64,000 nucleotides of DNA from Patescibacteria group bacterium (GCA_963169855.1 CAUJCN010000001.1:81828-145827); one strand, 5' to 3'. Positions 5,159-27,517 are shown, numbered from the stretch's first letter. Translations and numbers: made by a program. Notes: generated by a model not told the origin, from the letters alone.

Positions 5159-8100
5159 TTATCGTCCAAGAGAAATCCAGTTAAACTCAACAGGAACTTC
5201 TAAAGCGGCATCTAGAATAATATCGAATGAAGTCTCTGTAATATTTCCAACATAGTAATCAACTCTTCGTCCAATCGGAGATGCTGTAACTACAGGTACA
5301 GTATTGAATGGAGTAGAGAATGTTACAGTCACAAATGTTAATCCGGTTTCAATTGTCGCTACACCTGCAGTATCTTCTGAAACATTTAATTTTCCAAGAA
5401 CTCTAACATTTCCAGAAGCAATCAAGTTTCCTACAGACAGATTACTCAAATCTATCGAAGCTGATCCACCCTGTAATAAAGAAACTGTTCCTTCAAGTGA
5501 AGCTAATCGTGTTTCAACATCAACTAATCGTGCCTCGTGAGTCTGGAATATTGTTAGTGAAGATTGAATGTTATTAATTGTTTGTTGTATTGAAACATTT
5601 GTATTTTGTAAATCTAGTATTGTCGATCTAATTCCTTGAAGATCTGTTGGAACAGCACTCAATGTATTTAAGCTTGCTTCAACAGCATCAACTCTACCTT
5701 CATTTTCGTTAACTTGAACTTCAACATTTTGTAATCGTCCTTCCTGAGTTTGAACAGCATCGGTCAAGATTGCAGACATTAATTCATAGTTAACTCCTTC
5801 AATTCTTCCATCTCTTGAGAATGCTAATCGTGGATCTACTACATTTACTTCTTCCGCAATAAATCCTAAGCTTCTTGAACCATCACTATTCTTTGTAAAT
5901 TGAACTGGTCTTAATCCCATTACTGTATCTAATCCATTGTTTAAATCAGAAATATTACTCTTATATCTTTCAGAAGAAACATTACAAACTCCCGCCTGAA
6001 CAACAATTACTCCTGAGGCATCTGTACAAACGTAACTTGTAGAAGCACCTCCGTTTGTAAGTTGACTTACATCCAATTCTCCATTTGCATTCAAAGACAT
6101 TCTAGCAACAAGGTTTGTAGTGAAATCGATACCGTTATTTACAGTTGTTCCAAGTGTGTAGTTACCACCTAAACCATCTGTCTGATTTCCATCTAACATC
6201 CAGAATGTAAATTCAGAGTCTGTCCAGTTTGCTGCTCCTCCAGCTCCTCCTGATAACAACACATCGCCGATGTTACCTGCGTTACCATTTGCTCTAAGCT
6301 CTCTTTCAAAGAACACATCTCCATTCCAAGTAACATAGAAAGCTGTGCTTCTGGTTAGATCATCTTCTCCGTTTCCAATAATAAATATTTGTTCATTGTC
6401 TGTAATCGCCTCAGTATAAGTTTGAGAAGCATTAGCACCATTTCTAATTGCGTAACTACCCATGATGGTCTGTACATACGTATCACTAACAAAACTACTT
6501 AAAGTTGTGTCCGTACCAGATCCGGTGATGTTACCAATACCGAATACTGTTGCTCCTGGTCCAGTACCTACATTCTGTAATCCCCAAACTGTGTTACCCA
6601 TGCCCGTCACTATATTTTGGCTACCCCACGCTGTAGAAAGAGTAGCAGATGGCGCAACTACATTTTCATCCCCGAATACAGTAGAATTTACACCAGAAGC
6701 GACATTTGACTCTCCCCATGTAGTTGAATTTTGTCCATCAGCAACATTTCCTAAACCAAATGCTGTTGCTTGTGAAGCGTTTGCCAAAGTGTTTGCTCCA
6801 AAAGCTGTTCCGTTTTCAAAAACAGCACCTGGATCAACATTTGTTTGATCTCCCCATGCCATACTATTCAGCCCTCTTGTTTGTGTTAGGTTACCAAATG
6901 CAGTATTATTTGAGCCAATTGCTTGAGCACCATTACCGAATGCTGTTGAATTTGTTCCTTGAGCCACTGTTTGGAAACCAAATGCAGTAGATTGTTCTGC
7001 CATAGATTGTGTTCCTCTTCCAAATGCTAATGAATTATCTCCACTTGCTGAAGTTTGATATCCGAAAGAAGTAGCTTGATCTGCTTCAGCTCTAGTGTCA
7101 AATCCAAATGCTGTTGCATTATCTACATTAGCTGTAAAGAATCCAGCAAGAGTACTTGTTCCCCATGCTGTTGATGCAAATGATTGAGAACCCACAGTAG
7201 TGAATCTACCAAATGCTGTAGAAGTATCTCCCAATGCCTCAGAAGTAAATCCAAATGCTGTTGAGTTTGTTCCTTGGGCCACTGAGTTTTCACCCCATGC
7301 TGTTGATTGGTCACCTTGCGATTGTGTTAGTAGACCAAATGCAGTAGAGTTTATTCCGTAAGCCTGTGATTGATTTCCAAATGCAGTTGCTTGATTTGCC
7401 TCCGCTTGAGTTTGATTTCCAAATGCCAAAGCGTTTGCAACATTCATAGTCATTACCCCAGCAGAAGTATCTGTACCAAAAGCCGTAGATGCTAATGAAT
7501 TTACTCCTACATTTGAAATTCTACCAAATGCTGTTGCATACTCTCCAAGAGCCTGTGTTGTAAATCCAAATGCTGTTGAGCCTATTCCTTGTGCCAGTGT
7601 ATCATCTCCAAATGCAGTCGAATTATCATTTAAAGCTTGGGTAGAAAATCCAAAGGCTGTTGAATTAAGTCCCTGTGCTGACGTTTGGTTTCCAAATGCT
7701 GTTGCCTGATCATCTTGTGCTTGAGTTTGGTTTCCAAATGCAAGTGCATTCTCTACACCCGGTGCCGAAGTTCCTGCTTCAGTAGCTGTACCAAATGCAG
7801 TTGAATTAGTTGAACCAAATCCAACTATCGAATTTTGTCCAAAAGCTGTTCCATTATCACCCAATGCTTGTGTCTGTGTTCCAAATGCTGTTGCTGAAAT
7901 TCCACTAGAAAGCGTGTCTTCTCCCCATGATGTTGATTGGTCTCCGTTAGCCACTGTTCCAAAACCGAATGCAATTGAATTTGTTGCTTGAGCCTGAGTT
8001 TGAGTTCCAAATGAAGTAGCTCCTGGACCTGAAGCAACGGTTGTATTTCCCCAAGCTGTGGCATTTATATCTTGAGCAAAGGAACCTGTACCCCAAGCAG

Positions 8101-11100
8101 TTGAATTCTGTCCTGTCGCTTCGTTTTGTTGACCCCAAGACATTGAACCGGTGCCAGAAGCAGTTGTATCTAGACCAAATGCCGTTGAATAATCTCCAAC
8201 ATTTGCATCACCCCACTGAAATCCGTTTGCAGTACCAGCTCTAAATGCGGATCTTCCAGGTGCCCAATACATTCTAGTTGTGGAACTGAATACTGCTGGG
8301 ACAGGATCTCCACTTAGATTACCTTCAAAAAGAACGTTTGTTGGATCTCCGTTAGAGATTATATGGAGTTTCTCTTGAGGATCTGCAACACCAATTCCAA
8401 AGTTTCCAATTCCTGACCAGCCAATGCTGTTTCCTGCAAGTGGAACTTCTGTATCAAATAGTAAACTTGCGTTTGTAGCTTCTGGGCTACCCACAGCTCC
8501 ACCTAATCTTATTCTGTCCGCAACTGGGTCTACTTGCAAACCATTGTCTGCTAATGCAGAGATTGTGCTGCCTGTTATGTCTATACCATCTCCACCTACT
8601 AGACTTCCTCCTCCAAAACAAGAGAACCACGCCCCGTTGTTTTCTGAACACTGAAATGTGTTTGAAAGAGTATCAAAATACATGGACCCTGCACCAAAAG
8701 GTGAAACTGCTGGTGCAAATCCACCGTACAAGGTCATCTTTGCGTCCCAGCCTACCGAGAATGCATTATTTCTTGCAAAGTCACTCGTTCCATTACCTAT
8801 TATAAATGCCTGATCGGATTGATCAAAGGCAAGTGAGTTACCTGAAACTGTATTAAAACGACCAATTGTGGTCTGAGCAAATCCTTGTGATTCAGTACTT
8901 TCTCCAAATGCAACGGCTCTCTCTCCCGATGCAGTAGCTCCATCACCCATTGCAATAGATACAGTTCCACCAGCAGTTACTTGCGAACCCATTGCGATAG
9001 AAGAGAAGCCATTTGCTGTAGCTCCGTTACCAAAGGCTGTTGCAAAGTTTGCATTTGCTTGCACAACATTACCATACGCAAATGAACTATCTCCCATTGC
9101 CTGTGAATTGTTACCTCCAACAAAAGAAGCAGTACCAGATGAAATATTTTGCAAACCGAATGCTACTGACATTGTTCCTGATGCTTGCGCATTTTGTCCA
9201 AATGCAAAAGCTTCTCTATCAGATGCTGTTGATGTAAATCCACCTGCAAATGAATTCTGACCAGATGCGATAGTTCCTTCACCTAAAGCTATAGCTCCAT
9301 CACCTTGTGCTGAAGTCCCTACTCCTAGAGAGGTTGCGTATGATCCAAATGCACTAGTTGTATTACCAAAAGAAGTAGATCCAATTCCTGTTGCATTATT
9401 ATTGTTTCCAAATGCAGTTGCATAGTCTGCAGATACATCGTTGGAGAAGCCCCAAACTCCAGCCGAGCTTGCATTAAAATTAATATTATTCATATTTCCA
9501 GCACCAAAGTTTGTAGAACCCTGAATGTTGTTTCCTGAACCTCCTACTAGCGAATAAAATGCTGGAACAGTATTACTAGATCCCGATACAAGGGAAGCCT
9601 GACCTGTAACTTGATTAGCTTGTCCAAAAACTGCAGAATCGTCTGCACCGAAAATTTGATGACTTTGTCCACCAGCTACTATTCTTGCTCCTGCTGCCAT
9701 TTGATTAAATCCAAAAATGGCGCCATCATTCACTCCAATATTATTGTTATTAGATCCACCTAGAATAGTATTTACCCCAAATGGCATTAAAGTATTAGAA
9801 GATCCAAATACAATTGAATTCTGTCCCCCATTAGTATTCGTATTTCCAGTTGTTATAGAATCTGTACCAGTAATTGAATTACCTTGACCAATTCCTAAAG
9901 ACCTGTTTGAGCCTGTCATTGTGTTACCTTGACCTGAAAGTATAGAGTTAACAGATGTTTGACTTTGGTTTAAATTACCACCGACTAAAGTGCTGTCGCT
10001 ACCCATATCAATATTGTTCGATGAACCGTAAACTATAGAAGAGATACTTCCTGTTATATTGTCTGTTCCTGCAGCCACAGAGAATGGTCCGTTGGCTTGT
10101 GTATTATTTCCAAAAGACGTTGCACCGAATGATGTTGCCTGCGTATTTTGACCAAATGCTAATGAGTTATTTCCAGAAGCAGTATTACCTTGTCCAAATG
10201 AGGTTGAGTATTCTCCTTGTGCAGTAGTATTTTGACCAAATGCAGTTGCTCCTGTACCTGAAGAAATATTATTGTTTCCGAAAGCAGTACCATAAGAATT
10301 AACAACCTCATTACTAAAGCCCCATGTCGCAGCGTTTTCAGATCCCATCATTATTTGGTTTTGTTGGCCGGCTGCAAAATGTTGCAATCCGCTCACCTGA
10401 TTCATCATTCCACCAACAAGACTAAAGTTGGAGAAGTTTTGATTGGCTTGACCACCTGTAATCGACCCTTGATTTTGGACTTGATTTCCTTGTCCAAAAA
10501 CTGCGACATCGTTCGAAAAGTTAACTTGATTAAATTGTCCTCCAACAACCACTCTTTGACCACTTACGGTTTGTGTAACTCCAAAAACTGCTGAGTTTTC
10601 TGCATCTACATTATTGTTTCCCTGGCCCCCAACTATAGAATTGTTGGTGGTTGGTACAGTTGTGTTGTTTTGACCAAAAACAATCCCCCTTTGGCCGGTA
10701 CTTGTATTAGCTTCTCCTATTGTAAATGAAGTGGCACCACTTACTGTGTTACCAACTCCTGCTACTATTGCTGCAGATGCTCCATTAAGGTTATTGCTTT
10801 GCCCAAACAGTGCTGAGTTAGAAGAGGCTCCTATTGCAACATTTGTATTACCTCCTGCAATTGTATTTTCACTAGACATGTCTACTGCACTACTTTGACC
10901 AAACGCTATTGAATTTGTTCCAAAAGCAAAAGTTCCATTTCCAGCAGCAATCGAATTCATACCATTTGCTTGTGTATTCTGGCCAAATGCAGTAGCACCT
11001 TGATTAGTTGCTTGAGTATTAAAGCCGAATGCCGCAGAGTTGATTCCACTAGCTGTCGTATTAACTCCAAAAGCTGAAGCACCCGCAGCAGTCGCTGAAG

Positions 11101-14100
11101 TGCTCTGGCCAAAAGCAGAAGAATTTGCTCCAGAAGCTGTAGTATCTAATCCAAAAGCTGCTGAGTTATCTCCAACATTGAAGTTGTCCCACTGACCCAT
11201 TGTAGCGGTTCCAGCTCTAAATGCTCCTCTACCAGGAGCCCAGTACATTCTAGTTGTAGAAGAGAATACTGTAGGAACAGCCATTCCATTTAAAGTACCT
11301 TCAAATAATACGTTACTAGGATCTCCCGCGCTCATCACATGTAATTTTTCTTGTGGTGCTGCAACTCCAATTCCAAAATTTCCCTGACCTGACCACCCGA
11401 TGCTGGATCCTGCCAAAGGTACTTCTGTATTAAATAGTAATGATGCATTTGTAGCCTCCGGAGATCCTACTGCGCCTCCTAGTCTAACTCTATCGGTGGC
11501 TGCATCTACTTGTAAACCATTATCAGCTAAAACATTTAATATTGGATTTGTAAGAGTACCTGTGTCACTGAGACCATCTCCAGCTGTTATCGAAATTATT
11601 CCTGCAGATCCTGTAGATCCAATTACATGCCAATTAGCACCATCAGAAATTAAAGTTACAGCATTCATATCATCCAAAGCATATGCTCCGGAAAGACCAT
11701 CTATTGTTTCTAAGCCCATAGGATTCACTCCCGAAGTAGATCCAGATTCATTTTTTATTGTATAGATTCGTCCTGCTAACCCGCCTGCTGATGGTAAATT
11801 CGCGCTTACTGCTGGACCTGTCAACACTACTGTTTGATTTAGCTCATCTAAGTTAATGCTTCCACCAGAAGAGTCTTCGTAGTTTACAGAGAAACTTCCA
11901 TTTGTACTCAAAGTTGAATGTGGAGTAGTGTTATTAAATCCTACACCCAATCTATTGTTAAGAGTATCTACAGATATTACTGTTGCAGTATCATCCTCTT
12001 TTCTAACTTGGAAAGCATCTGTTCGATTTACGCTATTTGAAACAAATATTGGTCTTGAATTTCCAACTGTTGTTACTCCAATCTGATAATCAGTAACCCC
12101 AATTCCTGGATCAGAGAACATTAATGCAATTGGATCGATTACTCCAGTTACTGTTAAATCTCCAGTTACTTGCAATCCCTTTGTACCAGTTAAACTTCCA
12201 CTATCAAAGGTTGGTAAGAACCCATTATTCGTAATTGTTGTATTGTGTAGTAGAGTACCACCCCATTCGATAAAGTCTCCAGAGAAACTCAAACCATTTT
12301 GAATCTGAGCATCTATTATTGGATCAACTCCAGTTCCAGAATTTACTAAACCTAACCCTGCTGTAACTGAATTAACTCCACCAGCTCCAAAACAATCAAA
12401 ATATGCTGCACCGTTTTCAGAACACTGGAAACCTCCTAATGCAGAGTTGAAGTACATTCTCCCTTCTCCTAGAACAGATAATGCTGGGTCTAACGTAACA
12501 CCCATCATAGAAAGACCTGAGTTACCAGTCAATCCAGTTGTACCTTGATCAATGCTAAGCAACGCTGTAGGGGCAGTAGAAAGTATTCCAACTCTTCCAT
12601 CTCCCATAACTGTCACCAACGGAGTTGGAATTCCAAATAAATCGTTCTCTATTTGGAAGACTTCGTCACTTGCACTAAGATTTTGCTTTGTTGCGAAATA
12701 AAATGCCTGTTCTACTCCTTGTCCAATGTTTCTATCAGAAAGAAATGCCATCCCACCAAAATTACCTGCAGTATTTGTTCCAAAGTTTGTTGTGTGTATA
12801 GTTGCTGAACCCGGCGATGCAAACCCTTGATTTAAAGAAGTATAATTTGCACCTGCTCCCAAAGTTCCTGTTGTTGATGTGATATTTAGACTTCCAGGGC
12901 CAAGTTCTAAGGAAGCCCATCTATTAGTTAGTGTTCCTAAATCAAATGTATTATCTACCTCAGGATCGAATCCTGTTGCAGTTATTCTTGCAATACTTAC
13001 AGCATTCCTAATAAATGTTTGATCAAAATTATCTAAAGTACCTAAAACACCGCTTGTACCAAATGAATTTCCATCCTGACAGAAAAAATCACCTGTAGGA
13101 TCACACGGAAGATTAGCTAAACTTGAGTTTACAGGATTACCACCTGCATCAAATCCAAGTAAGTTAGAAATCACCCCAACTGGAACTCCCACATTTGAAG
13201 AAACGCCGTTAACATTAGATGTAAATCCACCAGCAAGATTCAGGGAGAATACATTACTGTTTATTATAGTAGCAGTGTCCGATACACCATTAACTGTTGA
13301 AGTCATTGTGTTACCTAATGAGTCGAGAACATTTGTCGTTGCTCCAGATAGAAATGTACTCGCGTCCTTACTTAATAAGTTTCCTGCCGCATCAGTATAA
13401 AGAATATTAAGTACAGCCGGTGCATCATCTCTTGTATTTGGATAGCTACTCATTAAAATATTTCCATTGCCGAAAATTGTGAACCTATCAACACCACCAT
13501 TGTTTGCTGTAAAAATAGAAGTACCTATTGCAGTCTCGTTCCTTACTAACAATCCATTAGCACCTACGCCAGGTGTTCCGTTGTGGAATGTAGCAGTATA
13601 CCCTGGTGTGATTGGACCACCGATCTGCCAGAAAATTCCTACAGGATGTTGACCAACTCCACCTTGATCAGTAATACTACCTGATGCATTCGAAAGTAAA
13701 GTTGCGGGATTGTTGCTACCTATTCCAACATTTCCTCCAGCCATAACTCTCAATCTTTCTAGACCATTTGTTTCCAAAACCAAATCGTTGTTATCATTTG
13801 TTCCTAACGTACCCGTTGTACCAAAAAGGTTACCATCCTGACAGAAGAATGAACTAGTAGCAACGCAAGGAAGAGTAGAAAGATCAACAGTGTTGCTGGT
13901 TACACCATTAACAACACTCTCTAGATTTGAACCTACAAGATTTAAAACATTTGTATTTATTATGTCATCGAAACTTACAACACCATTCACTGTGCTTGTT
14001 GCAACATTCCCTGCTGTTGTGAATACATTAGTAGTATTTCCAGTTAAAATTGAAGCAATTGTTTCATTAACTGCTACTCCACCTGCATCAAAACCCAGAA

Positions 14101-15757: not shown

Positions 15758-15911
15758 TCAACCAAAGTAAAACTAGCAATAGTGCAATTATTATATTTAG
15801 CAATATGATCGTAAATTTCCAGCCTTTTGATTCTTTCTTTTCAACATCAATTTGGACTTTGTCCGATGTTTTTTTGTCCGAATCCTTTTCTACAAGTGTA
15901 ATTTCCTGCAC
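15741..15911 (-). CDS. Small single-TM peptide (56 aa, GTG start), paralogue of the peptides upstream of the other two giant genes. It overlaps the giant-gene start.
   Basis: Translation '(M)QEITLVEKDSDKKTSDKVQIDVEKKESKGWKFTIILLNIIIALLLVLLWLNGPFR*' read from the minus strand. The C-terminal hydrophobic helix plus 'LNG' parallels P1/P2, which end in 'IING*'/'LING*'. The TGA stop lies 14 nt inside the 3532-aa ORF. No in-frame ATG is present, so the start is uncertain. Confidence 0.4.
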   Translation of the reverse strand: MQEITLVEKDSDKKTSDKVQIDVEKKESKGWKFTIILLNIIIALLLVLLWLNGPFR

Positions 15912-17992: not shown

Positions 17993-20900
17993 CTATAAAG
18001 CTATCCAGTTAAATAAAATATCCGATGTTGATACTGGTTGTATTACAATATCAAAACCATTTTGATTTACATTTTCTATTCCATAGTATACAGCATTTAT
18101 TCCAACAGGTGTAATAGTTACTGATGGAATTTTTGTTAATGGAGTAGAGAAGTTTACACGAATTGAATTGTTGCCTCCCGCAATAGTAGCATTTCCACTT
18201 AGTGCCACCGGAATAGATTGAATCAGGTTTTCTAAATCGGAAATCCTTTGGTTTATTGCGGTTATATCAAATGAATTTGTTGCGAGTGAATCAATATCAT
18301 TTTTTATATTTGTTAGTGATGTATTCAAATCAGATGCCATAGTTTGTAACTCAGAAACATCAGTTCCGTCTAATTGTGTTTTTAGTTGATCGATCTCAGC
18401 TTGAATTCTAATATTATCTTCATTTAATTCTTGAATTGCTTTAACCAAGTAAGGGGTAAATCCGTTTACTTTAATTTGAAGATATCCGTCAGCTCCTACT
18501 TTAACTAAATCAGGTACAACCGATTGAACTTCTTGAGCAATAAATCCTAACTTCAATTCGTTCGAAGGATCGTTGTTCATATAGTAATTTCGCACCTGCA
18601 ATTGCGATATTGTGTCTAAAGCCGAAGTAGAGTAGTCAGAAATAGTATTTTTCAATCTCGAGTCCGAAGTACATCCAAATGAACCAAAAGCACCATCTGG
18701 TGCCACGGTACAAGTACCCGAACTATTTTCAAAAGTAGCTACTGTGGATAAAGCAGGGTCTAGGAAATCTCCAACATGTAATTGACTTGTAGGCGACACA
18801 TTATGTATACCAACGTTCCCATTTATTCCGTTAACAAACACATGTACAGTATTATTTGTACCCAAAGTTAATGGATATGTAGCCATGGTGTTTACATTAA
18901 ACGACTCAGTTCCTCCAAGCGATCCGTTTAAAGTAGAGTTTGCTTGAATAAAACCAATTCCTGCATTGTTATTTGAGAACATCATCGATGAGGCCGCGTT
19001 TAGTCCTGAATTGTTGTTTCTAAATTCTACAAACCCTTGCGCATCTACATCTTGCTCAACTACAAACATATAGTTTGGTCCTGAAGTTCCTATTCCTACA
19101 TTTCCATTATTTGCTATTCGCATTCTTTCTTGTCCATTTGTGAAGAATACTGTAGAAAACGCAGCAGAACCAAGTGTTAAGCTGCCTGCAGAATCGATAG
19201 TTATGTCGTTATTAGTAGTGATCAGCGATGCGTAATCTCGTGCGTTTAAAAACAAGTTTCCTGAAAGTGTGTTTACTGAAAGATCTCCGTTAGAATTAAG
19301 TTCGTTATTTATTGTGCCCGTAAAGTCTAACATGCTACGGCCAACGTCTGTCCACAAATCAAAGCCAGCCGATGTGGCATTGTCGTGAATATTTAGAGCG
19401 ACTACAGGTCCACCAGTTACAGTTTGAATTCTCACGGCTCCTGAATCTGCTAAAATTGTTCTTCCAACACCTGGTCCTCCAAAATCGTATGAATCATCCA
19501 AAGTTCCACCGCCAATTCCTAACCATCCATTCGTTGAAAAATCCTGTGTCTTCACATACAAATGTTCTCTATTTGTTACACCATCAATTCTAAAAAACAA
19601 ACTTCCGCTATTTGCCAAATGAACACCCTCTGGGTCTCCAATTCCAACTAGCTGATCTATGGTATTGGCACCTGTTCCAGATAACCTGAGTGTTCCTGGT
19701 CCAGATGTATTTGTAACATTCATTATTGAAGAACCTGCACTAGATCCTATTACAAATGTATTGACACCTTGTTGTCTGAATATCGTACCAGTATCGTTAG
19801 AAAGCAATATCTCATCGGTTACTCCTTGGTATGTAAGGTTAGCAAAGTTTGTATTAGGCATATCTAGAAATCTTATTCCACCACCGTTTGGTGAAGTAAT
19901 TAATTCAAAACCCGAGCCATTAGTATTGTACCCTTGAATAATGTTTTGATTACTCACAATATTTTGAGTTGACACAAGTAGAGCTTCATTTACACCATTA
20001 ATTTCTACAGCTCCAGAATCAACAGTTATTATTCTACCTGCACCAGGTCCACCAAAATCGTATGCATCATCTAAAGTTCCTCCTGCTCCAGCACCGAGAG
20101 CCACCCACCCATTAACACTTGCATCTGTTGTTTTTACGTATAGTTGTTGACTGCCTCCAACTCCATCCATTCGAAAGAATACACTTCCGCTATTCGCAAG
20201 GATGCCTCCTTCTGGATCTCCCGTACCAATTAACTGATCTACAAAAGCAGCACCTCCTGTAGTTCCTAATCTTAAAATCGTAGGATAAAATGGCCCATTA
20301 CTATTAATTGTTAGAACAGGATCGTTCGCCAAGCCAGCCGTTGACTGTATTATTGTACTATTGCCAGTCATTCTAAAAACGTTATTAGCCTGATTTGTTA
20401 TAGAGAAGTTATCAAAAGAACCATCGTATACGGTTCGAGCGACGTTAGCTCCAAAACTATCAGAGAACCATAGACCTCCGCCGTTTACGTAGGTTTGCAA
20501 AGCAAATCCGGATCCATTTGGGTTTGAAGCTGTAAAAATGTCTTGATTACTAGCATTGTTTTGCGTTGTTGCGTGTATAGCATTTGATGTTGCATTAAGC
20601 TCAACAACTCCCGAATCTACATCAATAATTCTCCCTGCCCCTGCGCCTCCAAAATCGTATGCATCATCCAGAGTTCCTCCAGATCCTCCTGAACCCAACG
20701 CTACCCAACCGGTATTGAAGCCATTATTTGTAGTTTTTACATACAGTTGTTCGTTCGCCCCACCATCAGTTCGCATGTAAATACTTCCTTGGTAACCAAA
20801 TAGAACATTTTCTGGTGTACCAGCACCAGAATAGATCTCAGTTGTACCACCATTATTATTGAAGTTCATAAAGGAATTTTGAGTTTGACCAGCATTTGTA

Positions 20901-23275
20901 ATCTGTAGTATTCCGTCATGTTGTAAAGAGTTGCTTAAATACTGAAGGTTGTTTCCTTGATTAAACATTGTCCAACCAGCACCAGTTATACCGTTCCTTA
21001 ACGAGAAATTATCCACGATTCCTTGGAAATACATATCGTAATAATTTGCTGCACCGTTGAACAATTCAGAGGCAAATGTCAATCTGACTCCATCAGAATC
21101 ATCTCTTATTAAGAACGAATTATTTGTACCTCCTGTTTGTGTATAGAAGAGAGTATCTGAAAATGCTCCTGCAGCGTTTAAGAATCCCGGGCCAGAAGAA
21201 GTAAGTCTCAAACCTTGCACATCTACTTGTAAGTCGTTTCCAGCAGCTGGGCCACCGAAGTTATATGCATCTTGCAGAGTGCCACCACCACCTCCTCCAC
21301 CTCCTAGCTGTACCCAACCAGTGTTAGTTCCTGCTCCAGTTTCTTTAACCCACATCGGCATAGCACCAGATCCAGAAACATCGTAGTAAACACTACCCAT
21401 AAATCCGTCCACAATTCCATTCGGATCTCCATTGCCGACATTGTGAGTCATTGATCCAAAACTATTTCCCATCGAAACAACTCCATAAGGATTGGTTACA
21501 TCATTGTTTTGAATGAATACGGAACCAGTTGTAGATGTTGTAGCAGATGCGCTAATGCCAGTCTGAGCTGTTGAGTAAAAGTTAAGTGACGATGTTGGTC
21601 CTGAAGCAGTAAGACTAACACTAAACGGATCAAAAGATAATGTTCCGAAATCTGAACCTCCTCCGTCTGAAAGTCCTATATTAAAGAATTCGTTTCCTGG
21701 AGAGTCTGCAAAGATTTGATATCCGAATGTTGTAGAAGTGAAATTATTCACATCTACTGAATAAATCATTCCAGTTCCTGTAAATGGACCAAAATCCAGT
21801 CTACCCATAGATACGCCAGCCCCTGCTGTGTTAATTCCAACCCCATCTCCAACAACACTGAATGCTGGGTCATATCCAAAAGGAACAGCGCCTATTGAAT
21901 CTATTAATTCTACGGAACCTGAATCTGTAAATATTGTTCGTCCAGCACCTGGGCCTCCAAAATCGTATGCATCATCAAGAGTTCCACCAGATCCACCTCC
22001 TGCTCCAAGAGCTACCCAACCAGTGTTACTACCATCAGTTGTTTTAACGTACAATTGCTGAGAACCACCGACTCCATCAGTTCTAAAGAAAACGCTTCCA
22101 CTATCTGCATTCTCTACACCTTCCGGATCACCAGTACCAACCAATTGTGTAATTCCACTTCCAGTAGCTGGGTCTAATGATAATACTCTTGATGGATTAG
22201 CCATATTTTGATTTTGTATCAAAACAGCACCTGCGTTTGACTGAGCCTGACCTCTAATTCTTACAGTATCGTTTACAGAAGTTATGAATAAATCCTGATC
22301 TGATTGAATATCCATACCACTTCCGTTTTCAGATTGTATCTGCATTAATCCATTCATCATGAGAATGTTTCCATATCTTGTAGCCCCATCAGAAAATCCT
22401 AATTGGTAAAATTCAGCACCTGGGAATGCAGAGAAAGAATTAAATCCGTAATATCCGTTTGTGAAATTGTTTACATCATCGGCAAACAGTAAGATACTTC
22501 CATCATCACCACCTTGAACATCCATTTTTGCCATCGCAATACCGTTCAGGCTTGAATTGTTTACTGTACCATCTCCGACAATTACAAAAGAAGGATCGTA
22601 TCCTGCAAATCCTCCTGTCTTAACATCGGTAAACTGCACAGCTCCTGCATCTGTAGTAACAATTCTACCTGCTCCTGGACCACCAAAGTCATATGCATCA
22701 TCCAATGTTCCACCTCCGGCAACAGAAACACATGATAATACTGTACCATTCCACGAAAGAGTTTCTCCTAATGCACAGGTAGGAGCATTCAAAGAAATTA
22801 CTCCAGTAGTTGTAATCGTTCCGCCATTCAATCCGTTACCAGCCGTAATACTTGTAATTCCAGAAGAGCCTCCAACTGGTAGGTTTACAGTATTACCGTT
22901 TGTAATTCCTAAAGTATTACCTAATATGTAAAGAGTTTGCTGATCGTCATCATTCGTCGGGTTAGTTGGTGTAGTGGTTCCAGTTACTTCGTCTACACAA
23001 ACAAAGTTCGAACCATCCCATTGAAGTTTATCTGTCGCTTGGTTACAAACGGGAGCACTTAGGGATATAGTTCCTGTAGTTGTAATCGTACCTCCACTTA
23101 ACCCAGCACCTGTTTGAATTCTAATATTTGTACCTCCACTGTTTGATAGATCACCGATTTGATTTGTTAAGTTAGAACGAAGAGAACCTAATACTAATAC
23201 AATTATTAGCGTGATTATTCCAAAACCTAAAATGAACCATTTATTAATACCTATTTGGTTTTCGACATTATCCAT
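17993..23275 (-). CDS. Giant (1760 aa) type-II membrane-anchored surface fibre protein with six 'GGTLDDAYDFGGPGAGR'-initiated modules and a C-terminal peptidase S74-like intramolecular chaperone domain
   Basis: N-terminal 'WFILGFGIITLIIVLVLGSL' TM helix. Two Cys-pair modules ('SAPVCNQATDKLQWDGSNFVCVD'). Six repeats each end in '...GS(V/L)FFR(T/M)DG..QLYVKT.D...GWV.LG'. C-terminal 'TSDSRLKNTISDY...LKLGFIAQEVQSVVPDLV' chaperone signature followed by a coiled coil and a β domain. Confidence 0.85.
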   Translation of the reverse strand: MDNVENQIGINKWFILGFGIITLIIVLVLGSLRSNLTNQIGDLSNSGGTNIRIQTGAGLSGGTITTTGTISLSAPVCNQATDKLQWDGSNFVCVDEVTGTTTPTNPTNDDDQQTLYILGNTLGITNGNTVNLPVGGSSGITSITAGNGLNGGTITTTGVISLNAPTCALGETLSWNGTVLSCVSVAGGGTLDDAYDFGGPGAGRIVTTDAGAVQFTDVKTGGFAGYDPSFVIVGDGTVNNSSLNGIAMAKMDVQGGDDGSILLFADDVNNFTNGYYGFNSFSAFPGAEFYQLGFSDGATRYGNILMMNGLMQIQSENGSGMDIQSDQDLFITSVNDTVRIRGQAQSNAGAVLIQNQNMANPSRVLSLDPATGSGITQLVGTGDPEGVENADSGSVFFRTDGVGGSQQLYVKTTDGSNTGWVALGAGGGSGGTLDDAYDFGGPGAGRTIFTDSGSVELIDSIGAVPFGYDPAFSVVGDGVGINTAGAGVSMGRLDFGPFTGTGMIYSVDVNNFTSTTFGYQIFADSPGNEFFNIGLSDGGGSDFGTLSFDPFSVSLTASGPTSSLNFYSTAQTGISASATTSTTGSVFIQNNDVTNPYGVVSMGNSFGSMTHNVGNGDPNGIVDGFMGSVYYDVSGSGAMPMWVKETGAGTNTGWVQLGGGGGGGGTLQDAYNFGGPAAGNDLQVDVQGLRLTSSGPGFLNAAGAFSDTLFYTQTGGTNNSFLIRDDSDGVRLTFASELFNGAANYYDMYFQGIVDNFSLRNGITGAGWTMFNQGNNLQYLSNSLQHDGILQITNAGQTQNSFMNFNNNGGTTEIYSGAGTPENVLFGYQGSIYMRTDGGANEQLYVKTTNNGFNTGWVALGSGGSGGTLDDAYDFGGAGAGRIIDVDSGVVELNATSNAIHATTQNNASNQDIFTASNPNGSGFALQTYVNGGGLWFSDSFGANVARTVYDGSFDNFSITNQANNVFRMTGNSTIIQSTAGLANDPVLTINSNGPFYPTILRLGTTGGAAFVDQLIGTGDPEGGILANSGSVFFRMDGVGGSQQLYVKTTDASVNGWVALGAGAGGTLDDAYDFGGPGAGRIITVDSGAVEINGVNEALLVSTQNIVSNQNIIQGYNTNGSGFELITSPNGGGIRFLDMPNTNFANLTYQGVTDEILLSNDTGTIFRQQGVNTFVIGSSAGSSIMNVTNTSGPGTLRLSGTGANTIDQLVGIGDPEGVHLANSGSLFFRIDGVTNREHLYVKTQDFSTNGWLGIGGGTLDDSYDFGGPGVGRTILADSGAVRIQTVTGGPVVALNIHDNATSAGFDLWTDVGRSMLDFTGTINNELNSNGDLSVNTLSGNLFLNARDYASLITTNNDITIDSAGSLTLGSAAFSTVFFTNGQERMRIANNGNVGIGTSGPNYMFVVEQDVDAQGFVEFRNNNSGLNAASSMMFSNNNAGIGFIQANSTLNGSLGGTESFNVNTMATYPLTLGTNNTVHVFVNGINGNVGIHNVSPTSQLHVGDFLDPALSTVATFENSSGTCTVAPDGAFGSFGCTSDSRLKNTISDYSTSALDTISQLQVRNYYMNNDPSNELKLGFIAQEVQSVVPDLVKVGADGYLQIKVNGFTPYLVKAIQELNEDNIRIQAEIDQLKTQLDGTDVSELQTMASDLNTSLTNIKNDIDSLATNSFDITAINQRISDLENLIQSIPVALSGNATIAGGNNSIRVNFSTPLTKIPSVTITPVGINAVYYGIENVNQNGFDIVIQPVSTSDILFNWIAL

Positions 23276-23396
23276 TAATTAGAAACAGTAATAAGGCCAA
23301 AGCAGAAATGATAAGAATCAATGTAATTCCAACATTTACAATTGAGTAGTTCTTAGACTCTACATCGTATTGCTCATCTTGTTTTTTTGAGGCCAT
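23268..23396 (-). CDS. Small single-TM peptide P2 (42 aa), translationally coupled to the 1760-aa giant gene
   Basis: Minus-strand reading 'MASKKQDEQYDVESKNYSIVNVGITLILIISALALLLFLING*'. The stop codon TAA sits inside AATGGATAATG, overlapping the giant-gene ATG out of frame. It is below the ORF-track length cut-off. Confidence 0.5.
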   Translation of the reverse strand: MASKKQDEQYDVESKNYSIVNVGITLILIISALALLLFLING

Positions 23397-23472
23397 GATA
23401 AATAAAAATAAGTTAGTGCTATTACAATATAGAGAAAATAAAGGGACATTTCAAGAGATATTTGGGAGAATT

Positions 23473-26400
23473 TTAGAGTGTAGCAAAAGCCATCCAGTTA
23501 AAGTCTATGTCAGTTACAGCAGCAGAAAATAGTTTGATCTTAAAACCGAAAGCCGTAACCTCATCAATAAAGTATTCTCCAACTGAAGTATTTGAAGCCA
23601 AAGTTGCAGTAACTATTGGAGCAGAAGTGAGTGGTTTACTAAAAGTTACAGCAATTTCAGATGTTCCACCTAGTATCTTTACTTTTCCGATATTGTTTGC
23701 TGAGAATGTAACTTGGTCTTTAAAATTTACAACTCCAGCAAAAGAAGCACTTAAAAATTCAGAAGTTTCTGCAATCTCTGTTTCTATATTTTCGCTTTCT
23801 AATTCAATTTCCTCTAACCCAGGATACTCTATATTACTTAAAATTTGAGATTTAAATTCTTCATAACTTAATTTGAAATCGTTTAGTTGAGATGTTAAAT
23901 CCGCAAGATTCTGATTAATCCCAGATACATTAACTTCGTTATCATTTTCTGGGAGTGAACCTAACTCTTCCAATTTAGTCTCGATATCTGAAATTACTTT
24001 TTGTTGTTCTTGGATGGAATTTGTTAGTAGAGCAGAGATCAACTCATAGTTAACTCCTTCGATTTCTCCGTTTCGTGAGAATGCCAATCTTGAATCAACT
24101 ACTGCAACTTCCTCCGCAATGAATCCTAGACTTGGAGTTCCCGTAGGATCGAATATAAAACTAACAGGTCTCAAATTCATAAGTTCTTCTAATCCAATTT
24201 CCAAATCCTGAACATCTGATTTATATTTACCAGAAGAAACATTACATACACCGGCTTGAGCTATCATTCTTCCACTCGCATCTAAACATAAATACTGCGT
24301 AGAAGGATTTACAGAACTTACCATACCAGTTAGGTCTATATTCCTTGATTGATGAATTCTAATAACATTTGTACCTGCAATTTGGAAGAACACATCTCCA
24401 TCAACAATACTACCGTCTCCTGATGTTATAACCACGGCTCCTCCAATGCTAGCTGCTGAGCCTCCTGCCGCTATGCTAATATTACCTCCCTGACTTGCTG
24501 ATCCAGCACCTGCTTGTAGCGTAATACCTCCTCCAATTCCTGTACCGCTAGCACTACCCCCCTGCACAAAGAATTCACCTGCAGTACCATTTACAGAAGC
24601 ACCTAGATTAAAGAATGCACCTCCTCCAGTTCCTGTCACATCTGCAGAACCTCCATTGTATGTAAATCGACCAGCAGAATCACTTGAACCTACGGAACCT
24701 CCTCCTGTATTTAATGTTATGTCCCCTCCAGCACCTGCACCTGCTATACCCCCATTTCCAGTATTAATATTTATTCCACCAGCATTTCCTACAGAGTTAG
24801 CTGTTCCAGTAGCAATTGTAATTGTTCCAGAACCAGTATTACCGTTCCCTGTATACATGTTAATATTTCCGGATCCATTAGCTACAGCCGCTGATCCTGT
24901 AGCCATGTTTAAGTCACCTGGAGTTCCAGAGAATGATGAACCTGTTGAGATATTAACGCTTCCCGCTAAACCAACTGTTGCACTACCCCCGTTTATATTT
25001 ACATTTCCTCCTCCCCCCGGTGTGAAAGTGTTATTGTTTCCTCCATTGATATTGACTGTCGCAGCCTGAGAAACCGAAGTATCTGTTCCACCTAATTGAA
25101 TTGATGCACTACTTAGTCCTCCTGCCGAGAAAGATGAGTTAATACTTACATCGCCTCCAGAATTTTGTGTTGAACCAAACAATTGAATACTCGCTGACCC
25201 AATGGTCGAAGATGTATTAATACCTGCCGAAAGCCAAACATTACCGTTTGTTGCAAACGGGTTACTCGATTGACCTCCATTAATATTTATATTTCCTCCA
25301 CTGTATGAAGCACCTGCCGTTAGATTAACATTTCCAGCTGTACCTAAGGCATTTCCAGCGTTGGAAGAATAAATATTTACGCTACCACTGAGCATATCCG
25401 CAAAGCCTGTACTTATATTTACTGTGCCACTAGAACCTGTTCCAGCAGATGAACCTGTTGAGATCGATATCTGACCTGAGTTTCCATTACTAAGTCCATT
25501 CGCAGAACCTGTAGACATAAATATATCCCCAGTCTGGTTTCCGGAAACTCCATTTGCACCGGTATAGATACTTACACTACCACCATCCCCTGAACCATCT
25601 CCGTTACCAGAACCTAAAGCTGCGCTCCTACCACTCCCATTAGAACCAACTAATGCCTCACCCCCATTGACTACAATTCCAGATGCCGATACGAATAAAG
25701 TACCGTAAATATCAGTAGTTGATGAGCCTGCTCCAACAACCATTATATTATTTCCTCCACCTGCATCAGCATACTGAAGGAAACCGTATCCAGGTGTTGT
25801 TGTAAAGTTATCTATATCATTAGAGAATAGAAATGCTGTTGCCTCCGCCCCAGGGAAAGCAGGGTTTATATTTCTAACTATCCCAACTCCAGCTGTCTGT
25901 GAGAAACCTGGTGCCGAACCATCTCCAACAACTTTAAATGCAATTCTTTCATTAAGTGGCACGTTTGCCGAAGGAGATGTTCTTAATTCAACAGCACCTT
26001 GATCCAGATTAATTATTCGGCCAGCTCCTGGACCACCAAAATCATAAGCGTCATCCAAAGTTCCGCCGCCTCCTCCAACGTCCCCAATCGGAACCCATTG
26101 ATTATTATTTACCCCTGCAGTTCCAATATTTGCCCATAATACATTAGCACCTGTTACACCTGTCTGAGAAGCAACATATAAAGATCCCGCATAACCATCG
26201 ACAAATCCATTAGGATCGAGTTCACCTCCTGCAGTAAATTTAATACATCCATAAACTGGAACAGATGGTGCACACAAGTCTAAAATATCATACCCAGATG
26301 TAGATGCACCTATAAGTCTTATTGGCGAGTTACCTGGATCTGTATTCGTACTTCCACCGTAAATGTAAACTTGTTCAATAGCCTGCAAACTAAAATTATT

Positions 26401-27387
26401 ATTTGTCGATAACCCTAATGGTCCACCCGAAGATAAGTTGGTTTCCCCTGAATCAGAAAATTCTAATGCAGATACATTATTAAATGGGGAATCAGCTATT
26501 CCTATTACAAATACATCGTTTAGAGGGTTGATTGGATCATGTTGATATATAAGTGAACCTTGTGACCCAGAAGTATATGTTGATGCATCGGGTCCAAATA
26601 CCTGAATGTAAGCTTCTCCCCCTGGGAAAGTTAAGTTCGTGAAGCCTATACCAGATCCTGCTGTCGTTGTAGTTCCATCTCCTAAAATTTCAAAATCATT
26701 AGCCACTGTTGGGAATATTGTTCCTTGTGTAATAATAGATACAGCTCCAGCGTCAGCAAAAATAGTTCTTCCTACCCCTGGTCCACCAAAATCATACGCA
26801 TCATCCAGAGTTCCACCTCCTGCTGTAGAAATACATGATAGAACTGATCCATTCCATGTTAGTGTTTCGCCAAATGCACAAGCTGGTGCGTTTAGAGCAA
26901 TAGTACCAGTTGTTGTTATCACACCTCCCGATAGTCCAGCCCCTGCTGTAATACTTGTAATACCTGAGGTTCCACCTATTGGAATTGTGACTGTGTTTCC
27001 ATTTGAAATTGTTAAATTTCCTCCTGAATAGAATAGAGTCTGATTGTCAGTCCCTGTAGTAGTAGTAGTTGATGTACTACCAGTGATTTCATCAACACAA
27101 ATAAATGAAGTTCCGTTCCATTGAAGTTTATCGTTTGTTTGATTACAAATTGGTGCGTTTAAAGAAATTGTTCCAGTGTTTGTGATCGTTCCTCCCGACA
27201 AACCAACTCCTGTTTGAATTTGAACATCATTTGATTGGGGAGGAATTGAAATATTATTTAAGTCAGTAGCTATCTTTCCTCTAAAAGAAGACAGCGACAA
27301 AATAACAACAACTACAATTATTCCAGTTATCAAGATGAACCATTTGTTTAATCCAATCTGATTTTGTTGTTCCTCAAGTTTATCCAT
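23473..27387 (-). CDS. Giant (1304 aa) type-II membrane-anchored surface fibre protein with a Gly-rich 'GxxNIxTG' repeat region and a C-terminal peptidase S74-like intramolecular chaperone domain
   Basis: N-terminal 'WFILITGIIVVVVILSLSSF' TM helix. Cys-pair modules and two to three 'GGTLDDAYDFGGPGxGR' modules. A Gly/Ser/Asn-rich repeat region of about 280 aa. C-terminal 'YKSDVQDLEIGLEELMNLRPVSF...LGFIAEEVAVVDSRLA...GVNYELISALL' followed by a coiled coil and a terminal β domain. Confidence 0.85.
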   Translation of the reverse strand: MDKLEEQQNQIGLNKWFILITGIIVVVVILSLSSFRGKIATDLNNISIPPQSNDVQIQTGVGLSGGTITNTGTISLNAPICNQTNDKLQWNGTSFICVDEITGSTSTTTTTGTDNQTLFYSGGNLTISNGNTVTIPIGGTSGITSITAGAGLSGGVITTTGTIALNAPACAFGETLTWNGSVLSCISTAGGGTLDDAYDFGGPGVGRTIFADAGAVSIITQGTIFPTVANDFEILGDGTTTTAGSGIGFTNLTFPGGEAYIQVFGPDASTYTSGSQGSLIYQHDPINPLNDVFVIGIADSPFNNVSALEFSDSGETNLSSGGPLGLSTNNNFSLQAIEQVYIYGGSTNTDPGNSPIRLIGASTSGYDILDLCAPSVPVYGCIKFTAGGELDPNGFVDGYAGSLYVASQTGVTGANVLWANIGTAGVNNNQWVPIGDVGGGGGTLDDAYDFGGPGAGRIINLDQGAVELRTSPSANVPLNERIAFKVVGDGSAPGFSQTAGVGIVRNINPAFPGAEATAFLFSNDIDNFTTTPGYGFLQYADAGGGNNIMVVGAGSSTTDIYGTLFVSASGIVVNGGEALVGSNGSGRSAALGSGNGDGSGDGGSVSIYTGANGVSGNQTGDIFMSTGSANGLSNGNSGQISISTGSSAGTGSSGTVNISTGFADMLSGSVNIYSSNAGNALGTAGNVNLTAGASYSGGNININGGQSSNPFATNGNVWLSAGINTSSTIGSASIQLFGSTQNSGGDVSINSSFSAGGLSSASIQLGGTDTSVSQAATVNINGGNNNTFTPGGGGNVNINGGSATVGLAGSVNISTGSSFSGTPGDLNMATGSAAVANGSGNINMYTGNGNTGSGTITIATGTANSVGNAGGININTGNGGIAGAGAGGDITLNTGGGSVGSSDSAGRFTYNGGSADVTGTGGGAFFNLGASVNGTAGEFFVQGGSASGTGIGGGITLQAGAGSASQGGNISIAAGGSAASIGGAVVITSGDGSIVDGDVFFQIAGTNVIRIHQSRNIDLTGMVSSVNPSTQYLCLDASGRMIAQAGVCNVSSGKYKSDVQDLEIGLEELMNLRPVSFIFDPTGTPSLGFIAEEVAVVDSRLAFSRNGEIEGVNYELISALLTNSIQEQQKVISDIETKLEELGSLPENDNEVNVSGINQNLADLTSQLNDFKLSYEEFKSQILSNIEYPGLEEIELESENIETEIAETSEFLSASFAGVVNFKDQVTFSANNIGKVKILGGTSEIAVTFSKPLTSAPIVTATLASNTSVGEYFIDEVTAFGFKIKLFSAAVTDIDFNWMAFATL

Positions 27388-27517
27388 TAATTATAAACAA
27401 TATTAGTAGTATTGCCGAAATGACTAAAACCAGAATTACAGCAGTATTTATTACTGAGAAATTTGAAGACTCATCATAGATTGGAGTAGCTTCTTTTGCA
27501 GTTTTTTGTAGTGCCAT
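27380..27517 (-). CDS. Small single-TM peptide P1 (45 aa), translationally coupled to the 1304-aa giant gene
   Basis: Minus-strand reading 'MALQKTAKEATPIYDESSNFSVINTAVILVLVISAILLILFIING*'. TAA overlaps the ATGGATAA start of the giant gene. It is a paralogue of P2. Confidence 0.5.
   Translation of the reverse strand: MALQKTAKEATPIYDESSNFSVINTAVILVLVISAILLILFIING

Follow-up and report, generated by a model that had tools for sequence, protein, structure and literature searches.

Three giant tail-fibre-like proteins, candidate surface adhesins, encoded in an array on a Candidatus Saccharibacteria chromosome

Bacterial surface fibres that end in the Peptidase_S74/intramolecular-chaperone (S74/ICA) domain of phage tail fibres are of a kind already described. 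The MAT (mosaic adhesive trimer) superfamily of Bdellovibrio bacteriovorus comprises trimeric fibres on the predator surface whose S74 end self-cleaves (Caulton et al. 2024; PMC10769870). A C-terminal S74 with an S-x-x-x-x-K motif is found in 13 of its 21 members, autocleavage has been shown for Bd3182, and a conserved β-rich domain of ~130 aa, homologous among members, follows the signal peptide (PMC10769870). Chromosomal S74 proteins of bacteria, in Bacteroidota and others, are routinely named "tail fiber domain-containing protein" by NCBI. In phage fibres (K1F endosialidase, T5 pb1, S16 gp37 and the GA-1 neck appendage), the protein joins the virion via an N-terminal adaptor and ends at the ICA domain. 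The MYRF/MrfA transcription factors combine an ICA domain and a TM anchor within one polypeptide; in MYRF the TM segment lies C-terminal to the ICA domain, so that cleavage detaches the N-terminal portion of the protein from the membrane.

The 64 kb stretch of DNA analyzed here (the window) is chromosomal and originates from a member of Candidatus Saccharibacteria, in agreement with the reduced-genome bacterium assumed in a preliminary description. It contains three giant ORFs, designated as fibres A, B and C, whose lengths (1304, 1760 and 3532 aa) and minus-strand orientation are as previously given. They are on one strand but not consecutive, since three small genes (acc244, acc226 and acc143) and an overlapping ORF (sC) lie between fibres B and C. 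The array had been thought to end at 27517, which is not the start of fibre A (27387) but an internal Met of the upstream ORF at 27380..27535. Its features are as follows.

27380..27535, minus: sA, 51 aa, single TM; stop overlaps the fibre A ATG by 8 nt (…FIING-stop)
23473..27387, minus: fibre A, 1304 aa; after the TM, 2 Cys-loop repeats, 2 'GGTLDDAYDFGG' repeat units and a Gly-rich β-repeat stalk
27280-27342, minus: fibre A, TM helix (~aa 16-36)
24088-24237, minus: fibre A, S74/ICA (~aa 1051-1100; Ser1051/Lys1056)
23716-24087, minus: fibre A, coiled coil
23476-23715, minus: fibre A, H-lectin-like domain (aa 1225-1304)
23268..23396, minus: sB, 42 aa, single TM; stop overlaps the fibre B ATG by 8 nt
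17993..23275, minus: fibre B, 1760 aa; after the TM, 2 Cys-loop repeats and 6 repeat units of about 190-240 aa
23177-23239, minus: fibre B, TM (~aa 13-33)
18500-18667, minus: fibre B, S74/ICA (aa 1537-1592; SDSRLK)
18200-18499, minus: fibre B, coiled coil
17996-18199, minus: fibre B, H-lectin-like domain (aa 1693-1760)
17217..17951, minus: acc244, 244 aa, one TM
16443..17123, minus: acc226, 226 aa, no TM
15967..16398, minus: acc143, 143-aa membrane protein
15741..15911, minus: sC, 56 aa, single TM; overlaps the fibre C start by 17 nt
5159..15757, minus: fibre C, 3532 aa; after the TM, 4 Cys-loop repeats and repeated 'TSTVNG' units
15599-15661, minus: fibre C, TM (~aa 33-53)
8738-11251, minus: fibre C, YadA-head-type block 1 (~aa 1503-2340)
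6308-8275, minus: fibre C, YadA-head-type block 2 (~aa 2495-3150)
5822-5977, minus: fibre C, S74/ICA (aa 3261-3312; SSERYK)
5396-5821, minus: fibre C, coiled coil
5162-5395, minus: fibre C, H-lectin-like domain (aa 3455-3532)

All three fibres begin with 'MD' and possess exactly one strongly hydrophobic stretch, which is located near the N-terminus with none further along. Gly, Ser, Thr and Asn account for 43–46% of each protein, and the N- and C-terminal modules can be aligned among the three. The common ground plan proposed earlier (MD start, one N-terminal TM and a Gly/Thr/Ser/Asn-rich composition) is borne out by these analyses. The hydrophobic stretches are ~20 residues long and the preceding n-regions are long (12–32 aa) and acidic; the positive-inside rule is clear for fibre C only. 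A conserved Cys-loop module comes next after the TM in each fibre, and the cysteines (8, 6 and 18 in the three fibres) are all paired at a spacing of 8–17 residues. The predicted extracytoplasmic location would fit these paired cysteines and the DsbB gene in the window. In the stalk, the YadA_head family (PF05658), which had been expected in the array, matched 13 stretches of fibre C (E 4.8e-75), whereas fibres A and B had no match to it in Pfam. Fibre C also scored against the Ata and YadA models (78.7 bits for the Ata-like match). A monomer model of the stalk repeat had low confidence (pLDDT 63), and a structure search with it gave no match.

The S74-type C-terminal signature was above the PF13884 gathering score (22 bits) in all three proteins: 48.6 bits (E 1e-12) for fibre B, 35.2 bits (E 1.5e-8) for fibre C, and 25.2 bits (E 2e-5) for fibre A when its last 292 aa were searched alone, the whole protein being unmatched. 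These results support the earlier view that S74/ICA domains are fused here to giant proteins with an N-terminal anchor. PHROG tail-fibre families matched the S74 stretch in each fibre, and profile searches with the S74/ICA domain matched phage S16 gp37 (E 8e-16), MyRF ICA (2.4e-7) and T5 pb1 (8e-6). An AlphaFold monomer model of the fibre B module had a pLDDT of 85–90 across S74/ICA; in Foldseek searches, MyRF ICA (7dc3) was structurally closest (E 7.8e-6, target-normalised TM-score 0.63), and 347 viral structure models matched the ICA fold at E<=1e-3. The Ser and Lys of S-x-x-x-x-K were invariant across alignments of 12 and 14 sequences. Fibre B has the canonical SD-x-x-x-K (SDSRLK), while fibres A (SSGKYK) and C (SSERYK) have SS-x-(K/R)-Y-K, in which Asp is replaced by Ser. 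Another 170–270 residues lie C-terminal to S74, so that this domain does not form the end of the chain.

These residues comprise a coiled coil and a terminal β domain in all three fibres. The latter had been recognized before, with a size of ~60 aa; we found it to be about 70–80 aa and resembling an H-type lectin, a likeness that had been overlooked. The sequence and model matches point to a divergent H-type lectin domain. The AlphaFold model (pLDDT 91–96) matched Helix pomatia agglutinin (HPA, 2ccv; E 1.5e-4) and discoidin II (E 1.2e-2) in Foldseek searches, and HPA and discoidin were also the top, albeit weak, PDB sequence-profile matches. The three domains of the window scored 22.5, 23.2 and 17.9 bits against PF09458, just under its 24-bit gathering score, and 39 of 55 family members matched it at E<=0.01 (best 5e-10). 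Identity to HPA is ~13%, which is too low for the sugar-binding residues to be mapped reliably.

A profile of the C-terminal module matched 16,121 cluster representatives at E<=1e-10. Many of these are 1000–5000 aa long, have a hydrophobic segment at the N-terminus and carry the terminal F-x-W motif, and the full module is present in several Patescibacteria lineages. The phage and viral matches found cover the ICA part only, in some cases extending slightly into the helix next to it, and the coiled coil and lectin extension was absent from 623 phage records and the best 80 IMG/VR loci. This extension characterises cellular proteins, those of Patescibacteria, which is a new point. A fourth fibre paralogue is present elsewhere in the same genome; the rest of the 64 kb window contains no further copy of the module.

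The fibres resemble the MATs in being chromosomal, phage-tail-fibre-like, putative surface fibres of a bacterium predicted to attach to other bacteria. Both have many paralogues per genome, lectin-type folds as adhesive domains (a predicted use in the present fibres) and a conserved module near the N-terminus (β-rich in the MATs and putatively equivalent here), and S74 with the S-x-x-x-x-K motif is found in all three fibres. Unlike the MATs, with a signal peptide and docking domain, the present proteins have a predicted TM signal anchor and a coupled mini-TM ORF, belong to a monoderm-type Patescibacterium, are up to 3.5 times larger, include YadA-head blocks (fibre C) and continue beyond S74 with the coiled coil and H-type lectin domain. 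The "tail fiber domain-containing" proteins likewise carry PF13884, often together with YadA_head (PF05658) or comparable stalk motifs, but most of them span a few hundred residues; they are functionally uncharacterised and use a signal peptide or PF18962 (T9SS, type IX secretion). Given these precedents, the previous statement that the array is not of a described type was too strong. With the phage fibres the proteins share the S74/ICA domain in sequence and fold and its proposed role in trimerisation, C-to-N folding and subsequent self-cleavage, whereas the N-terminal membrane anchor and the post-ICA coiled coil and lectin set them apart. Like YadA and Ata, fibre C has two long YadA_head left-handed β-roll blocks and would be an obligate trimeric surface adhesin. 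However, its C-terminus consists of ICA, coiled coil and lectin, and it is therefore not a trimeric autotransporter adhesin: its anchor lies at the N-terminus instead of the C-terminus, the ICA domain would provide trimerisation, there is no outer membrane, and the YadA_anchor β-barrel family is absent among the Pfam and NCBIfam matches of the fibres. Since the TM is N-terminal, cleavage would free a C-terminal cap, unlike in MYRF.

We consider it probable that the three array genes and the fourth paralogue encode chromosomal cell-surface fibre adhesins composed of elements of the phage tail-fibre toolkit. Each chain would be exported by Sec and kept tethered by its N-terminal signal-anchor helix, which the co-translated mini-TM protein from the overlapping ORF may join. 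The membrane-proximal Cys-loop repeats would make short disulfide loops, possibly with the aid of DsbB. The C-terminal module (S74/ICA, coiled coil and H-type-lectin-like β-sandwich) would emerge last and trimerise three chains, and the trimer would nucleate C-to-N folding of an intertwined stalk in the manner of phage fibres, including the two YadA-head β-roll blocks of fibre C, which are expected to fold only as trimers. The Ser/Lys dyad would then most likely cut at Ser1051 (A), Ser1537 (B) and Ser3261 (C), freeing the ICA-coiled-coil-lectin cap and exposing a Cys-x13-Cys tip. On the small cell, the mature fibres may extend outwards and attach to structures on the surface of a host bacterium. 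Host binding is suggested by analogy with the lifestyle of cultivated Saccharibacteria, and the three fibres are good candidates for host attachment.

That the genes are instead tail-fibre genes of a degraded prophage is highly improbable, even though PHROG tail-fibre families match all three and the S74 part is common to 623 phage records. As previously noted, phage genes are lacking: no capsid, terminase, portal, tail-tube or integrase gene was found in the 64 kb window, where only housekeeping and unknown genes accompany the array (Pfam on 36 other ORFs; PHROGs on the array and immediate neighbours). The array is not a prophage because its flanks are housekeeping genes (VIT1, HemN-like radical SAM, MsrA, DsbB, MetRS, RNase J-like, Mfd, BipA, CysRS, AddA-like helicase and EF-G) and because a synteny comparison showed array and neighbours to be retained in a second species (GCA_964650085.1). 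The N-terminal TM anchors, the four dispersed paralogues, and phage and viral matches that end at the ICA part and adjoining helix, none of those found reaching the terminal domain, likewise contradict that reading. It is unlikely, too, that the N-terminal segment is a cleaved signal peptide and the proteins are released or become part of a coat associated with the wall or S-layer. Among other Patescibacteria, many members of the family do begin with a classic signal peptide that has an Ala-x-Ala-like site, and in Bdellovibrio MATs an N-terminal docking domain comes after a signal peptide (PMC10769870); however, the long acidic n-regions and ~20-residue hydrophobic stretches are features of signal anchors.

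Within the adhesin reading, losing a conserved lectin-like domain by cleavage would be odd if that domain were the adhesive tip. Possibly, though with clearly less probability than the cleavage scheme, S74 only clamps the trimer permanently or remains bound once cleaved, and the lectin trimer is the distal receptor-binding tip. This would suit the conservation of the domain (PF09458 in 39 of the 55 members), its absence from the homologues detected in phages and viruses, and the fact that H-type lectins are trimeric sugar binders, one of which is annotated on a phage tail fibre (PMC3990757). The invariant Ser/Lys dyad argues otherwise, as an intact dyad accompanies cleavage in Bd3182 (PMC10769870) and, reportedly, in MyRF and T5 pb1. 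A role other than host attachment, such as self-aggregation, biofilm matrix or a phage decoy or shield, is improbable. In other bacteria, aggregation is reportedly a role of giant tandem surface proteins (PMC12863079), but Saccharibacteria in culture live as obligate epibionts and require several adhesins (PMC10633639), and the closest functional analogue, the Bdellovibrio MAT, binds prey glycans (PMC10769870).

The accessory genes acc244, acc226 and acc143 matched no known family in family and profile searches. The product of acc244 is conserved beside fibre genes in a related MAG (89% identity in the related locus L003), and a 35% identical copy in L006 immediately precedes two other fibre genes. 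The acc226 gene is fast-evolving and poorly conserved (30% identity to the syntenic gene). The acc143 family has >250 members, all small membrane proteins, and those few that are named come from Patescibacteria; four contexts of its homologues sampled independently of fibres contained no S74 neighbour. The analysis does not support the dedicated surface-fibre assembly system proposed earlier, since the accessory gene with the best conservation is also found apart from fibres of this kind; acc143 had no S74 neighbour in the four sampled contexts, and acc226 shows the low identity given above.

A small conserved single-TM ORF precedes every fibre gene, including the fourth paralogue, and its stop overlaps the fibre ATG; this coupling is new, the ORFs having been overlooked before. 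In the sB/fibre B overlap, AATGGATAA, one frame reads N-G-stop and the other M-D. The sB orthologue in L003 has equal length and overlap, with 12 identical, 14 synonymous and 17 non-synonymous codons, and fibre B itself is 85.6% identical over its full length to its orthologue in a related genome. The sC copy in L003 is 73% identical (23 identical, 19 synonymous and 15 non-synonymous codons). sA is a paralogue of sB, and its homologue (50% identity) occupies the same place in a related genome.

ORF calling and translation confirmed the three large minus-strand genes reported in the preliminary description, which encode the giant fibre proteins A, B, and C. Each gene is preceded by a small ORF with a single transmembrane (TM) helix (sA, sB, and sC, respectively), and a fourth fibre paralogue (P0025, at locus L085) has a comparable mini-TM ORF. 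These features and the DsbB gene are located as follows.

23473..27387, minus strand, ORF of fibre A (1304 aa)
17993..23275, minus strand, ORF of fibre B (1760 aa)
5159..15757, minus strand, ORF of fibre C (3532 aa)
27380-27535, minus strand, sA (51 aa), the stop of which overlaps the start of A by 8 nt
23268-23396, minus strand, sB (42 aa), the stop of which overlaps the start of B by 8 nt
15741-15911, minus strand, sC (56 aa), the stop of which overlaps the start of C by 17 nt
L085 2096-2239, mini-TM ORF of P0025 (47 aa), with an 8-nt overlap with the fibre start
33669-34130, minus strand, DsbB gene (ORF of the window)

Position 27517, the end coordinate given in the preliminary description, is not the start of A and falls within the small ORF upstream of it. 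The common ground plan ascribed to the proteins was found in all three: an 'MD' start followed by 12-32 hydrophilic residues, a single, strongly hydrophobic stretch some 20 residues long, a stalk in which Gly, Ser, Thr, and Asn account for 43-46% of the residues, and, at the C-terminus, a module of about 240-290 residues alignable across A, B, and C. Every Cys residue belongs to a pair with a spacing of 8-17 residues. A Cys-x13-Cys pair lies directly upstream of the predicted cleavage Ser in each protein, and a loop repeat of the type C-x(14-16)-C, in the form …APxCxxxxxLxWxGxxFxC, is present in two copies in A and in B and in four copies in C. The paired cysteines, together with the presence of DsbB in the window, fit an extracytoplasmic location of the fibres.

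The stalks are repetitive. A repeat of 190-250 residues, which starts with GGTLDDAYDFGGPGAGR and ends with …GDPEG…GS-x-(F/Y)-x-R-x-DG…LYVKT…GW, occurs as six units in B and two units in A, and the remainder of the A stalk is a Gly-rich β-type repeat. The Pfam check for YadA_head repeats was positive for C, the stalk of which contains two long blocks, each introduced by the same segment of about 120 residues; the stalks of A and B are built of other repeats. A model of the 'GGTLDDAYDFGG' stalk repeat (about 200 aa, pLDDT 63) gave no Foldseek match at E ≤ 1e-3, the best being OspA-like single-layer sheets; the model was given no weight, and its poor quality is probably due to a stalk that needs trimerisation in order to fold. 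Within the fibre genes (6000-12000 and 20000-26000), the G+C content is 0.41-0.42 versus about 0.34-0.35 in the flanks, and the GC skew inside these genes is strongly negative. The G+C content is most simply explained by a Gly/Ala/Thr/Ser-rich composition and codon usage, and foreign origin need not follow.

The predicted S74 signature was recovered by Pfam: PF13884 (Peptidase_S74; cut-off, 22 bits) scored 48.6 bits in B, 35.2 bits in C, and 25.2 bits in A, where the match appeared on scanning the last 292 residues alone and not with the whole-length protein. PHROG tail-fibre families matched the same stretch in all three proteins. Among solved structures, the module profile matched phage S16 gp37 (E = 8e-16), the putative tail fibre 8jov (5e-13), MyRF (2.4e-7), and T5 pb1 (8e-6). 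The AlphaFold model of the B module had a pLDDT of 85-90 across the S74 domain, which resembled the crystal structure of the intramolecular chaperone (ICA) domain of MyRF (7dc3; Foldseek E = 7.8e-6). The Ser/Lys catalytic motif reads SDSRLK in B, SSGKYK in A, and SSERYK in C, and neither catalytic residue varies in alignments extending to distant family members. A, B, and C belong to the S74/ICA domain family.

Downstream of the ICA domain, the B model shows long helices, corresponding to a coiled coil, followed by a β-sandwich with a pLDDT of 91-96. This β-sandwich resembled Helix pomatia agglutinin (Foldseek E = 1.5e-4) and also the C-terminal domains of phage tailspikes and pyocin fibres. 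The terminal domains of the three fibres scored 22.5, 23.2, and 17.9 bits against PF09458, for which the cut-off is 24; among family members, 39 of 55 terminal domains matched it at E ≤ 0.01 (best, 5e-10). The model and the profile matches across the family together support assigning the terminal domain as H-type-lectin-like. None of the 623 phage records with a module match covered 80% or more of the module; in all of the best 80 IMG/VR loci the match ended near module residue 128, and matches to BFVD structures aligned only about 100-120 columns. Since phage and viral matches are confined to the ICA part, the coiled coil and H-lectin extension seems to be characteristic of the cellular proteins.

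An exhaustive search of 1.84 billion cluster representatives with the module profile returned 121,514 matches at E ≤ 1e-3 and 16,121 at E ≤ 1e-10, most of which involve the S74 part. Of the 150 best, many span the whole profile and measure 1000-5000 aa, about half carry a hydrophobic segment at the N-terminus, and the terminal F-(N/S/D)-W motif is present in 86 (distinct terminal segments). A single-sequence search with the C module found one match only, a fragment of the A orthologue. Genomes were scanned with a 3-sequence module alignment, a 12-sequence alignment being too diverse. The full module was found in Saccharibacteria, one 'Patescibacteria group' MAG, and one Pseudomonadales-labelled MAG; the ICA or terminal domain alone in other Patescibacteria, e.g., Uhrbacteria, Paceibacterota, and Woesebacteria; and the S74 part alone in Bacteroidota, Acidobacteriota, and others. 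Such chromosomal proteins are named 'tail fiber domain-containing protein' at NCBI. Three loci from MAGs labelled Gammaproteobacteria (L051 and L059) or Pseudomonadales (L026) share with the Uhrbacteria loci L039 and L054 the order giant protein, acc143-like gene, 820-aa multi-TM protein, ValRS, and ArgRS, and these three contigs are probably mis-binned or mislabelled Patescibacteria. In some Patescibacteria family members (L008 3344-11146; L016 4853 and 11371), a conserved soluble N-terminal motif, …KYIS..RA…GY..DYIGQL…GKI…, replaces the TM segment or signal peptide.

A, B, and C are not phage genes. The reported absence of phage genes held across the window, where no structural, packaging, or integration gene was found, and the ORFs outside the array that matched a family were all housekeeping genes. 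Synteny comparison located the array, with the same downstream genes, in the nearest genome, GCA_964650085.1, an uncultured Candidatus Saccharibacteria MAG, in the order A, B, 246-aa gene, 187-aa gene, 143-aa gene, 56-aa ORF, and C; identities were 85.6% for B, 65-77% for C, and 45-61% for A. Promoter and terminator scans gave site counts no higher than those of shuffled sequence, and the scan found no intergenic terminator within the array. P0025 (1551 aa), located between the subunit genes of pyruvate:ferredoxin oxidoreductase, was found on a Logan contig (ERR10655378) from the same metagenomic samples and is probably from the same genome. An RHS/Tc-toxin-type gene (SpvB, TcdB_toxin_midN, and RHS_repeat) of at least 2659 aa lies about 8 kb from it.

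The small ORFs sA, sB, and sC are encoded on the same strand as the fibre genes, have a single TM helix after a hydrophilic N-terminus, and are paralogous to one another, sA and sB clearly so. Translated in one frame, the overlap AATGGATAA gives N-G-stop, and in the other it gives M-D, which is why the fibres all begin with 'MD'. In the related species, the orthologues of sB and sC retain both length and overlap. The codon changes relative to the orthologue (14 synonymous and 17 non-synonymous for sB; 19 and 15, respectively, for sC), with synonymous changes nearly as numerous as (sB) or more numerous than (sC) non-synonymous ones, indicate that the predicted peptides are under purifying selection. 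Fusion of a small ORF to its fibre by frameshifting was rejected, since the fused protein would form a hairpin of two TM helices and its disulfide-rich ectodomain would end up on the cytoplasmic side. The mini-TM ORF is the sole strictly fibre-linked partner; in other Patescibacteria, family members mostly have an ordinary signal peptide and no overlapping mini-TM ORF.

By analogy with phage fibres, the best-supported reading is that A, B, and C would be membrane-tethered trimeric adhesins that fold from the C-terminus. They are not trimeric autotransporters, as they have no β-barrel anchor. Beyond the observed domain content and conservation, we infer topology, trimer state, cleavage, and ligand as follows. 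The chain would be exported by Sec while held by its N-terminal anchor; the last-emerging module (ICA, coiled coil, and lectin) would trimerise; the stalk, including the obligately trimeric YadA-head blocks of C, would then zip up; and the Ser/Lys dyad would cut the chain. The lectin domain, which is conserved, may be kept as the fibre tip. We prefer its departure together with the chaperone after cleavage, because the Ser/Lys dyad is intact. A further, unlikely reading joins these elements, in this Saccharibacteria lineage, into a fibre/mini-TM two-gene unit with an S74-fired lectin cap and a role in host range. The coupled mini-TM protein would build a dedicated socket in the membrane together with the fibre anchor helix. 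Autocleavage by S74, rather than just removing a chaperone, would fire the trimeric coiled-coil H-lectin cap as a separate lectin, diffusible or host-bound, and loss of the cap would also unmask the Cys-loop tip of the fibre. If this were true, a Patescibacteria-wide fibre family would be a main determinant of which hosts an epibiont recognises.

The closest precedent is the MAT superfamily of Bdellovibrio, fibres of the predator surface that bind prey glycans; S74 ends 13 of 21 of them, and Bd3182 self-cleaves at its Ser (PMC10769870). The present fibres would resemble MAT and phage fibres in mode of working but differ in the monoderm-type envelope of Patescibacteria, the pairing of an N-terminal TM anchor with a coupled mini-TM ORF, the giant length of the proteins, the presence of YadA-head blocks in C, and the coiled coil and H-lectin extension past the ICA domain. 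We found no earlier description in the Patescibacteria/Saccharibacteria literature under intramolecular chaperone, S74, or tail fiber, nor any of overlapping mini-TM ORFs or a post-S74 lectin extension. Apart from the part played by type IV pili and several unnamed adhesins, little is understood of how the ultrasmall Patescibacteria recognise and hold hosts (PMC10633639, PMC12206443). The fibres are named, testable host-recognition candidates in Saccharibacteria that offer a predictable cleavage site and a lectin-type domain amenable to glycan arrays, and the diversity of their paralogues could follow host range. With them, the Bdellovibrio precedent, in which bacteria living on bacteria reuse phage receptor-binding architecture, reaches another lineage, one that is unrelated, very large, and equipped with an unlike cell envelope.

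The proposal of a dedicated surface-fibre assembly system was not supported, as relatives of acc143, one of three small accessory genes between B and C (acc244, acc226, and acc143), also occur away from S74 fibres. None of the three matched a family in Pfam (E ≤ 10), NCBIfam, or PHROGs. The product of acc244 is 89% identical to its counterpart in the related MAG, where a further copy lies upstream of another fibre pair (L006); acc226 and its syntenic counterpart are 30% identical. With acc143 at 71% and the fibres in between, evolutionary rates within the array are very uneven relative to the related species (L003/L005). Homologues of acc143 (15967-16398, minus strand) lie directly downstream of fibre-type genes at six further fibre-selected loci (L029, L039, L051, L054, L059, and L062). 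The family comprises over 250 small membrane proteins, and those few that are named come from Patescibacteria. In four contexts picked irrespective of fibres, no S74 neighbour was found (4/4), and acc143 was rejected as a dedicated fibre factor. Its family has the conserved C-terminal motif …NGQVYFGK…LHGP..-MDIN…EDL…SK and often, though not exclusively, occurs just downstream of giant surface-protein genes; a peptidyl-prolyl isomerase was near the acc143 relative in two of the four independently sampled contexts. Directly downstream of C, two paralogous multi-TM proteins (1151-2815, plus strand; 3192-4526, minus strand), also kept in the related MAG, show weak similarity to PMT_2 and LA_3751-type glycosyltransferases, and we speculate that they are candidates for O-glycosylation of the Ser/Thr-rich fibres.
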